A stretch of 64,000 nt of DNA, from the NCBI RefSeq assembly GCF_053078305.1, contig NZ_CP166879.1. The stretch is one strand, 5' to 3'. Shown here in pieces: positions 2,963-3,964 of this stretch. The notes under the pieces were generated by a model. It worked only from the letters and a program-made list of their open reading frames with translations, was not told where the DNA came from and did no database searches. Position 1 is the first letter of the stretch; each line of letters begins with the position of its first letter. A program made the position numbers and the translations under genes.

Positions 2963-3964
2963 ATGAGTAAAGTTGGTATTAACGGTTTTGGTCGTATCGG
3001 TCGACTGGTGTTGCGTCGATTACTTGAAGTCAAAAGCAACATAGACGTTGTCGCTATTAATGATCTCACTTCTCCAAAAATTCTCGCCTACCTGCTGAAA
3101 CATGATTCAAACTACGGACCGTTCCCCTGGAGCGTTGATTTTACGGAAGATTCACTTATCGTTAATGGGAAAAGTATCGCGGTTTACGCCGAAAAAGAGG
3201 CTAAAAATATTCCGTGGAAAGCGAAAGGTGCAGAAATCATTGTCGAATGTACTGGCTTTTATACCTCCGCCGAGAAATCGCAGGCGCATCTCGATGCTGG
3301 CGCGAAGAAGGTGTTGATTTCCGCCCCTGCCGGTGAAATGAAAACTATCGTTTATAACGTCAATGACGACACTCTGGATGGCAACGATACCATTGTTTCC
3401 GTGGCGTCATGCACCACTAACTGCCTTGCGCCGATGGCCAAAGCCTTGCATGACAGTTTCGGGATAGAAGTCGGCACGATGACGACCATTCATGCCTATA
3501 CTGGCACCCAGTCACTGGTGGATGGCCCGCGTGGTAAAGATTTACGTGCTTCACGCGCCGCGGCAGAAAATATCATTCCCCACACTACGGGCGCGGCAAA
3601 AGCCATTGGTCTGGTGATCCCGGAACTGAGCGGCAAACTGAAAGGTCATGCGCAACGCGTGCCGGTGAAAACAGGTTCGGTCACTGAACTGGTATCGATT
3701 CTCGGAAAAAAAGTGACTGCCGAAGAGGTGAATAACGCACTTAAACAAGCAACCACCAATAACGAGTCATTTGGTTATACCGATGAAGAAATAGTCTCTT
3801 CCGATATCATTGGCAGCCATTTCGGTTCGGTGTTTGATGCCACGCAAACGGAAATTACCGCCGTGGGCGATTTACAACTGGTGAAAACGGTCGCCTGGTA
3901 CGATAACGAATATGGCTTCGTCACGCAGCTTATTCGCACCCTCGAAAAATTCGCTAAACTCTGA
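2963..3964 (+). CDS. gapC: Glyceraldehyde-3-phosphate dehydrogenase C, intact 333-aa frame
   Basis: NAD-binding N-terminus INGFGRIGR, catalytic [10 protein letters not shown]; SD CAGGAGAAAA upstream. Confidence 0.9.

Follow-up and report, generated by a model that had tools for sequence, protein, structure and literature searches.

For one glyceraldehyde-3-phosphate dehydrogenase (GAPDH) of Escherichia coli, EcGAPDH1, structures have been solved with NAD, with phosphate, with glyceraldehyde 3-phosphate (G3P), and with the thioacyl intermediate (PMC8615399). The purified enzyme, which is the Asp68 allele, turned over G3P with NAD+, and its Km for G3P was 0.73 mM (PMC8615399, Biomolecules 2021). 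Furthermore, the C150A mutation abolished the activity of EcGAPDH1, and the wild type was about 8000-fold more active than the H177A mutant (PMC8615399). It should be noted that the assay was done at pH 10 and 50 °C (PMC8615399), and thus it says little about the role of the enzyme in the cell. The gene has been described from another side as well. According to the statements of PMC2949598 that cite Espinosa-Urgel and Kolter (1998), gapC is intact in environmental isolates, laboratory strains carry mutations that lead to a truncated protein, and gapC is expressed preferentially in fresh water. By this account, the contrast between the intact gene of wild strains and the broken gene of K-12 has been known since 1998.

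Here, we analyzed a window of 64,000 nucleotides (the whole stretch of DNA under study, from contig NZ_CP166879.1 of assembly GCF_053078305.1), in which gapC occupies positions 2963..3964 on the plus strand. Its product has the same residue as EcGAPDH1 at 332 of 333 positions, over the full length of the protein (PDB 7C5F, 7C5G, 7C5I, 7C5M, 7C5O and relatives). The EcGAPDH1 entries of the 7C5F series were reportedly described by Zhang et al. in Acta Cryst F in 2020. The sole difference is at residue 68, which is Asn in the window GapC and Asp in the crystallized protein (N68D). The crystallized sequence is itself a natural allele, WP_000048667.1, which is found in E. coli W, an O121 strain, and others; in addition, GapA also has Asn at the position aligned with Asn68 of the window GapC. 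An enzymatic assay of the purified product, which the earlier note on this DNA had proposed, already exists for the Asp68 protein (PDB 7C5F series, PMC8615399). The activity and structure ascribed below to the window GapC are taken from the literature on this 332/333-identical protein, and they would carry over to it by sequence identity.

We consider it very probable that 2963-3964 is the ancestral gapC gene, that it encodes a tetrameric NAD-dependent type I GAPDH which is presumably expressed beside GapA, and that the K-12 state is derived. This reading is based on the reading frame, the protein family, the active-site residues, the synteny, the frequency in the population, and the purifying selection of the gene. 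Meanwhile, E. coli strains usually have an intact gapC, as has already been published, so that the finding in the window is real, ordinary, and known. The product has already been crystallized and assayed, and the annotation pipelines already name intact gapC a type I GAPDH; the finding therefore has little weight as a discovery.

Reading Frame and Family Assignment of gapC

The open reading frame list and the sequence gave one frame from ATG to TGA at 2963-3964 on the plus strand, with 333 codons plus the TGA and with zero internal stops or frameshifts. The Shine-Dalgarno motif AGGAG was read from the sequence at 2952..2956 on the same strand, 6 nt 5′ of the ATG, and it was unchanged across six aligned E. 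coli lineages. The deduced protein matched both Pfam domains of the family, namely Gp_dh_N (PF00044; E = 3e-36, 124 bits) and Gp_dh_C (PF02800; E = 7e-58, 195.1 bits). In addition, the NCBIfam model of type I GAPDH (TIGR01534) scored 447.7 bits against a cut-off of 367.2 and covered residues 3-325 of 333.

The active-site and cofactor residues were then located in the protein. The codon of the catalytic Cys150 (TGC) lies at 3410..3412 on the plus strand, inside the motif SCTTNC, and that of the catalytic His177 (CAT) lies at 3491..3493 on the same strand, inside TTIHAYT. A Rossmann N-terminus (GxGxxG) was found at residues 5-14, together with the acidic residue that marks NAD over NADP. Furthermore, the NAD-binding residues Arg11, Ile12, Asp34, Lys78, and Ser120 (listed in PMC8615399) were all found, and so were Thr180, Thr182, and Arg232 of the phosphate sites (Ps and new Pi). 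By the curated cut-off, the domains, and the motifs, GapC is a member of the type I GAPDH family, and the GAPDH features of 2963-3964 are far beyond chance expectation. The earlier note had described an intact 333-codon frame, a good Shine-Dalgarno sequence, a canonical NAD-binding N-terminus, and a catalytic Cys region, and its description holds on all four points. At least 1000 contigs in public collections encode the exact protein, which is thus a common allele, under the name type I glyceraldehyde-3-phosphate dehydrogenase.

Several GapC entries from metagenomes or assemblies (P0016-P0019, P0021, P0033, and P0042) were 383 aa in length. These entries have an N-terminal extension of 50 residues, and the remainder is 99-100% identical. 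Because a stop closes the frame of the window upstream of 2963, the 383-aa forms are probably start-site artefacts or come from an allele that lacks this stop.

Gene Neighborhood of gapC in the Window

As the earlier note had stated, gapC has aldA and cybB as its neighbors, and both the family assignments and the annotated colinear genomes agree with this. The cytochrome b561 gene cybB (2244..2774, minus strand; Pfam Ni_hydr_CYTB; NCBIfam PRK11513, 378.7 bits), which the K-12 annotation names a superoxide oxidase, is divergent from gapC. The gene for the NAD-linked aldehyde dehydrogenase A, aldA (4006..5445, minus strand; NCBIfam PRK10090, 1003 bits), is convergent with it. Next to aldA are ydcF (5642-6442) and hrpA (6714-10616), both on the minus strand and both identified by ORF and family assignment. 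The window shares the order cybB-gapC-aldA-ydcF-hrpA exactly with K-12-type genomes and with other annotated E. coli genomes. Both by its position and by its near-identity, the gene of the window is the orthologue of E. coli gapC. In addition, the window and the pig isolate NZ_CP149565 are colinear, at 99.27% identity, over the first 49,989 bases of the window.

The cybB-gapC intergenic region is 188 bp long (2775..2962), where the start of cybB is taken from the PGAP annotation of colinear genomes. It presumably holds the promoters of both genes. The gap between gapC and aldA is 41 bp long and contains a GC-rich hairpin at 3972..3995, with a 9-bp stem (GGCGGAGGA/UCCUCCGCC) and a 6-nt A/U loop. 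Its RNA fold has an energy of -18.5 kcal/mol (z = -4.0 against shuffles). This hairpin is probably a terminator common to the convergent gapC and aldA genes, and a simple terminator scan left it out of its list because the T-tract is weak (TCTTTC).

The window also contains several RNA genes. Five Rfam matches were above the gathering score, all at the positions expected from K-12: sok, the hokB antitoxin RNA (1459-1610, plus strand), RydC (2170-2233, plus strand), MicC (34900-35020, minus strand), FnrS (39831-39948, minus strand), and McaS (43326-43421, plus strand). The RydC match is directly downstream of cybB. Meanwhile, uspF adjoins ttcA at about 36500-38100, as in the colinear NZ_CP149565, and the Rac prophage, which occupies this site in K-12, is absent from the junction.

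Comparison with the K-12 Pseudogene

The annotation of NC_000913.3 lists gapC (b4493) as a pseudogene, and PGAP labels gapC of a K-12-type genome "frameshifted; internal stop". That K-12 gapC is a pseudogene had been stated in the earlier note, which also suggested an alignment with it; the annotations bear this out, and the alignment with a K-12-type genome placed the lesions. The window gene and K-12 gapC are 98.7% identical, with 13 differences in 1002 nt. Two of these 13 differences are disabling in K-12, and both of the lesions are missing from the window. First, codon 39 (3077..3079, plus strand) is AAA (Lys) in the window and a TAA stop in K-12 (A115T). Second, the run of seven A residues at 3706..3712 (plus strand) keeps the frame in the window, whereas K-12 has six, which is a -1 frameshift at about codon 248. 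A further change in K-12 gapC is R18G, which the window gene does not have. The K-12 pseudogene is the derived state, and gapC of the window is the intact, ancestral allele.

A second long reading frame was seen in another part of the window. On the minus strand at 19673-25567, a single unbroken ORF of 1964 aa has a BigA/YdbA N-terminal beta-barrel and a BigA beta-sandwich, and it is thus an autotransporter of the ydbA type. Near 24872-25231 there are internal repeats whose period is about 30 nt. The annotation of the closest complete genome divides the stretch of this ORF into two features, and one of the two is a pseudogene. In K-12, ydbA is interrupted by IS elements. Like gapC, this ORF may be intact in the window and broken in K-12.

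Frequency of Intact and Broken Alleles in E. coli

The megablast search detected gapC in 5417 of the 5426 complete E. coli genomes. The coverage was at least 80% in 5409 of the 5426, every one of them with at least 90% identity, and the best match reached 99.9%. From the ranking of this search, 40 rows were taken as a systematic sample: 32 were full length, 7 had the 1001-nt span of the K-12 type, and 1 was truncated beside IS1. Annotation was fetched for 23 of the 32 full-length rows, and for all 23 alleles it gives an intact CDS. Among the genomes of the sample are E. coli W, an O121 strain, an O157:H7 strain, and a Nissle-derived strain. Full-length gapC is therefore present in about four-fifths of the complete E. 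coli genomes, a fraction whose intact part is drawn from the 40-row sample and the 23 annotated regions, the short queries described below having counted the K-12 alleles only.

The two K-12 lesions were counted with short queries. The stop allele (33-mer query) was found in 1154 of the 5426 complete genomes, and the allele with six A residues (34-mer query) was found in 1049 of them. Among the carriers are isolates from humans, pigs, dogs, sheep, an opossum, and beach water. Since the carriers of the K-12 alleles are often wild isolates, the pseudogene is a trait of a natural lineage and no laboratory artefact. The pseudogene state is confined to this lineage, which makes up about one-fifth of the sequenced complete genomes. 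In addition, the stop allele exceeds the frameshift allele by 105 genomes. This surplus could mean that the stop arose earlier than the frameshift, or it could be caused by SNPs within the 34-mer query.

Some individual records are also worth describing. In E. coli SCPM-O-B-7615 from raw milk (L015:2501-4678), the 3′ 80% of gapC is missing together with the 3′ end of aldA, and an IS1A element stands in their place; this strain lost the gapC locus independently and in association with an IS element. In E. coli wlxctx60 from a bear (L016:298-300), the start codon of gapC is ATA and not ATG, and PGAP still calls an intact CDS (WP_000048653.1). The ATA start may be an initiation defect that the annotation does not flag. 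Furthermore, 5 of the 5429 gapC matches were on records labelled plasmid, which may be mislabelled chromosomal contigs or large replicons derived from the chromosome.

Distribution beyond E. coli and Origin of gapC

Orthologues of GapC with 87-90% identity were found in Citrobacter, Klebsiella, Kluyvera, Trabulsiella, Yokenella, and other genera, and GapC of E. albertii is 97% identical to that of the window. The gene order is cybB-gapC-aldA-ydcF-hrpA in Citrobacter and gapC-aldA-ydcF in Klebsiella. Because the orthologues and the gene order are common to these genera, gapC is ancestral in this part of the Enterobacteriaceae.

A review terms gapC "laterally acquired" (PMC1796617), and one may ask whether E. 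coli gained the gene recently by horizontal transfer instead of inheriting it as an ancestral enterobacterial gene. The low identity between GapC and GapA (only 47%) fits such an acquisition, and so does the fact that the nearest solved relatives, besides EcGAPDH1 itself, are not E. coli GapA structures. However, the shared gene order and the 87-90% protein identity described above, the presence of the gene in nearly all of the complete E. coli genomes, and the close agreement of its G+C content (48.3%) with that of the window (49.3%) are all against it. These observations imply that any transfer of gapC predates the divergence of these genera. We rejected a recent acquisition on the synteny and identity in Citrobacter and Klebsiella, and consider it very unlikely. 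The term used in the review can only mean a much older event, and it concerns the origin and not the identity of gapC.

Selection and Expression of gapC

Among 14 distinct intact alleles of gapC, the segregating sites were distributed as 7, 2, and 73 over the first, second, and third codon positions. The median of pairwise dN/dS was 0.038, and the maximum was 0.115. Amino-acid variation was limited to positions 29, 57, 60, 68, 90, 104, 132, 262, and 265. The intact alleles are thus under strong purifying selection, and this speaks against a gene that is silent and decaying.

The expression of gapC has been studied in K-12. A ChIP-seq peak of sigma-S RNA polymerase was assigned to gapC_1/cybB (PMC4447067), and the gapC_1 transcript was 5.6-fold RpoS-dependent in glucose-limited chemostats (PMC4512719). 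In the six aligned lineages, the mean column identity of the cybB-gapC intergenic region was 95%. A consensus scan for sigma-70-type promoters in 2700-4100 gave two sites against 1.9 expected, that is, no promoter above chance.

This result of the scan would suit a gene that is open but cryptic, meaning that gapC is unexpressed or nonfunctional in this strain and that its disabling mutation is yet to come. Approximately 21% of the complete genomes tolerate the loss of gapC, and thus the gene is dispensable in at least some lifestyles; furthermore, most of it is gone in one strain by the IS1-associated deletion. However, a dN/dS of about 0.04 and the position of 73 of the 82 segregating sites in third positions are incompatible with neutral drift across lineages. 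All of the full-length alleles sampled for annotation were intact, and orthologues have been kept across genera of the Enterobacteriaceae. In addition, the promoter region is conserved and is linked to RpoS even in K-12. A cryptic gapC is therefore extremely unlikely in our view.

Another main substrate or role for GapC, either that of an erythrose-4-phosphate dehydrogenase (Epd/GapB-like) or that of an ArsJ-coupled arsenate-resistance GAPDH, can be set aside almost with certainty: the matches to these models (E4PDH, PRK13535, 280 bits against a cut-off of 539, and TIGR01532, 277.5 against 530.55; ArsJ-associated GAPDH, NF033735, 306.5 against 450) are expected of any GAPDH paralogue and are far under the cut-offs, whereas the type I model is passed, no arsJ adjoins gapC, whose neighbors are cybB and aldA, and the near-identical EcGAPDH1 uses G3P with NAD+ and was crystallized with G3P and the thioacyl intermediate.

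Possible Role of GapC

As an ancestral type I GAPDH, GapC would convert glyceraldehyde 3-phosphate, NAD+, and phosphate to 1,3-bisphosphoglycerate and NADH. In this reaction, Cys150 would be the nucleophile that gives the thioacyl intermediate, His177 would act as the base, and phosphate would attack the intermediate. GapC would be a second isoenzyme alongside the housekeeping GapA. The gene would be expressed in this strain; its promoter is probably RpoS-dependent and located between cybB and gapC, and the enzyme would provide GAPDH activity during stationary phase or in environments other than the host.

The earlier note had added that a second GAPDH next to aldA and cybB may matter under particular redox conditions. 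This is a speculation, and the divergent arrangement with cybB, as the gene of a superoxide oxidase, is suggestive only. A more specific proposal is that GapC is a dedicated stress or stationary-phase isoenzyme, controlled by RpoS from a promoter region common with cybB, which sustains lower glycolysis outside the host in cold, nutrient-poor, or oxidizing surroundings that make GapA limiting or oxidize its catalytic Cys. We put this forward tentatively, and regard it as doubtful. If it were true, the loss of gapC in the K-12/ST10-like lineage, which makes up about one-fifth of the complete genomes and includes wild isolates, would reflect a niche shift and not laboratory decay.

Whatever its role, the state of the gene has a practical side. 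When metabolic models or engineering designs are built on K-12, they lack the second functional GAPDH of most wild, pathogenic, and industrial strains, such as E. coli W and the Nissle-derived strain.

Comparison with Known GAPDHs

Four described systems can be placed beside gapC of the window. The first is EcGAPDH1, the nearest known enzyme: its named catalytic, NAD-binding, and phosphate-site residues are all matched in the window GapC. The second is the K-12 pseudogene (b4493, formerly gapC_1/gapC_2, b1417/b1416), which has the same locus and the same neighbors as the gene of the window. The third is GapA (b1779), which has the fold, the reaction chemistry, and the catalytic Cys/His motif in common with GapC and is 47% identical to it over the full length. 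However, GapA is a separate locus and a distant paralogue, and the GapA-specific model PRK15425 gives GapC 302.8 bits against a cut-off of 662. Finally, Epd (GapB) has the GAPDH fold in common with GapC, with sub-threshold similarity only.
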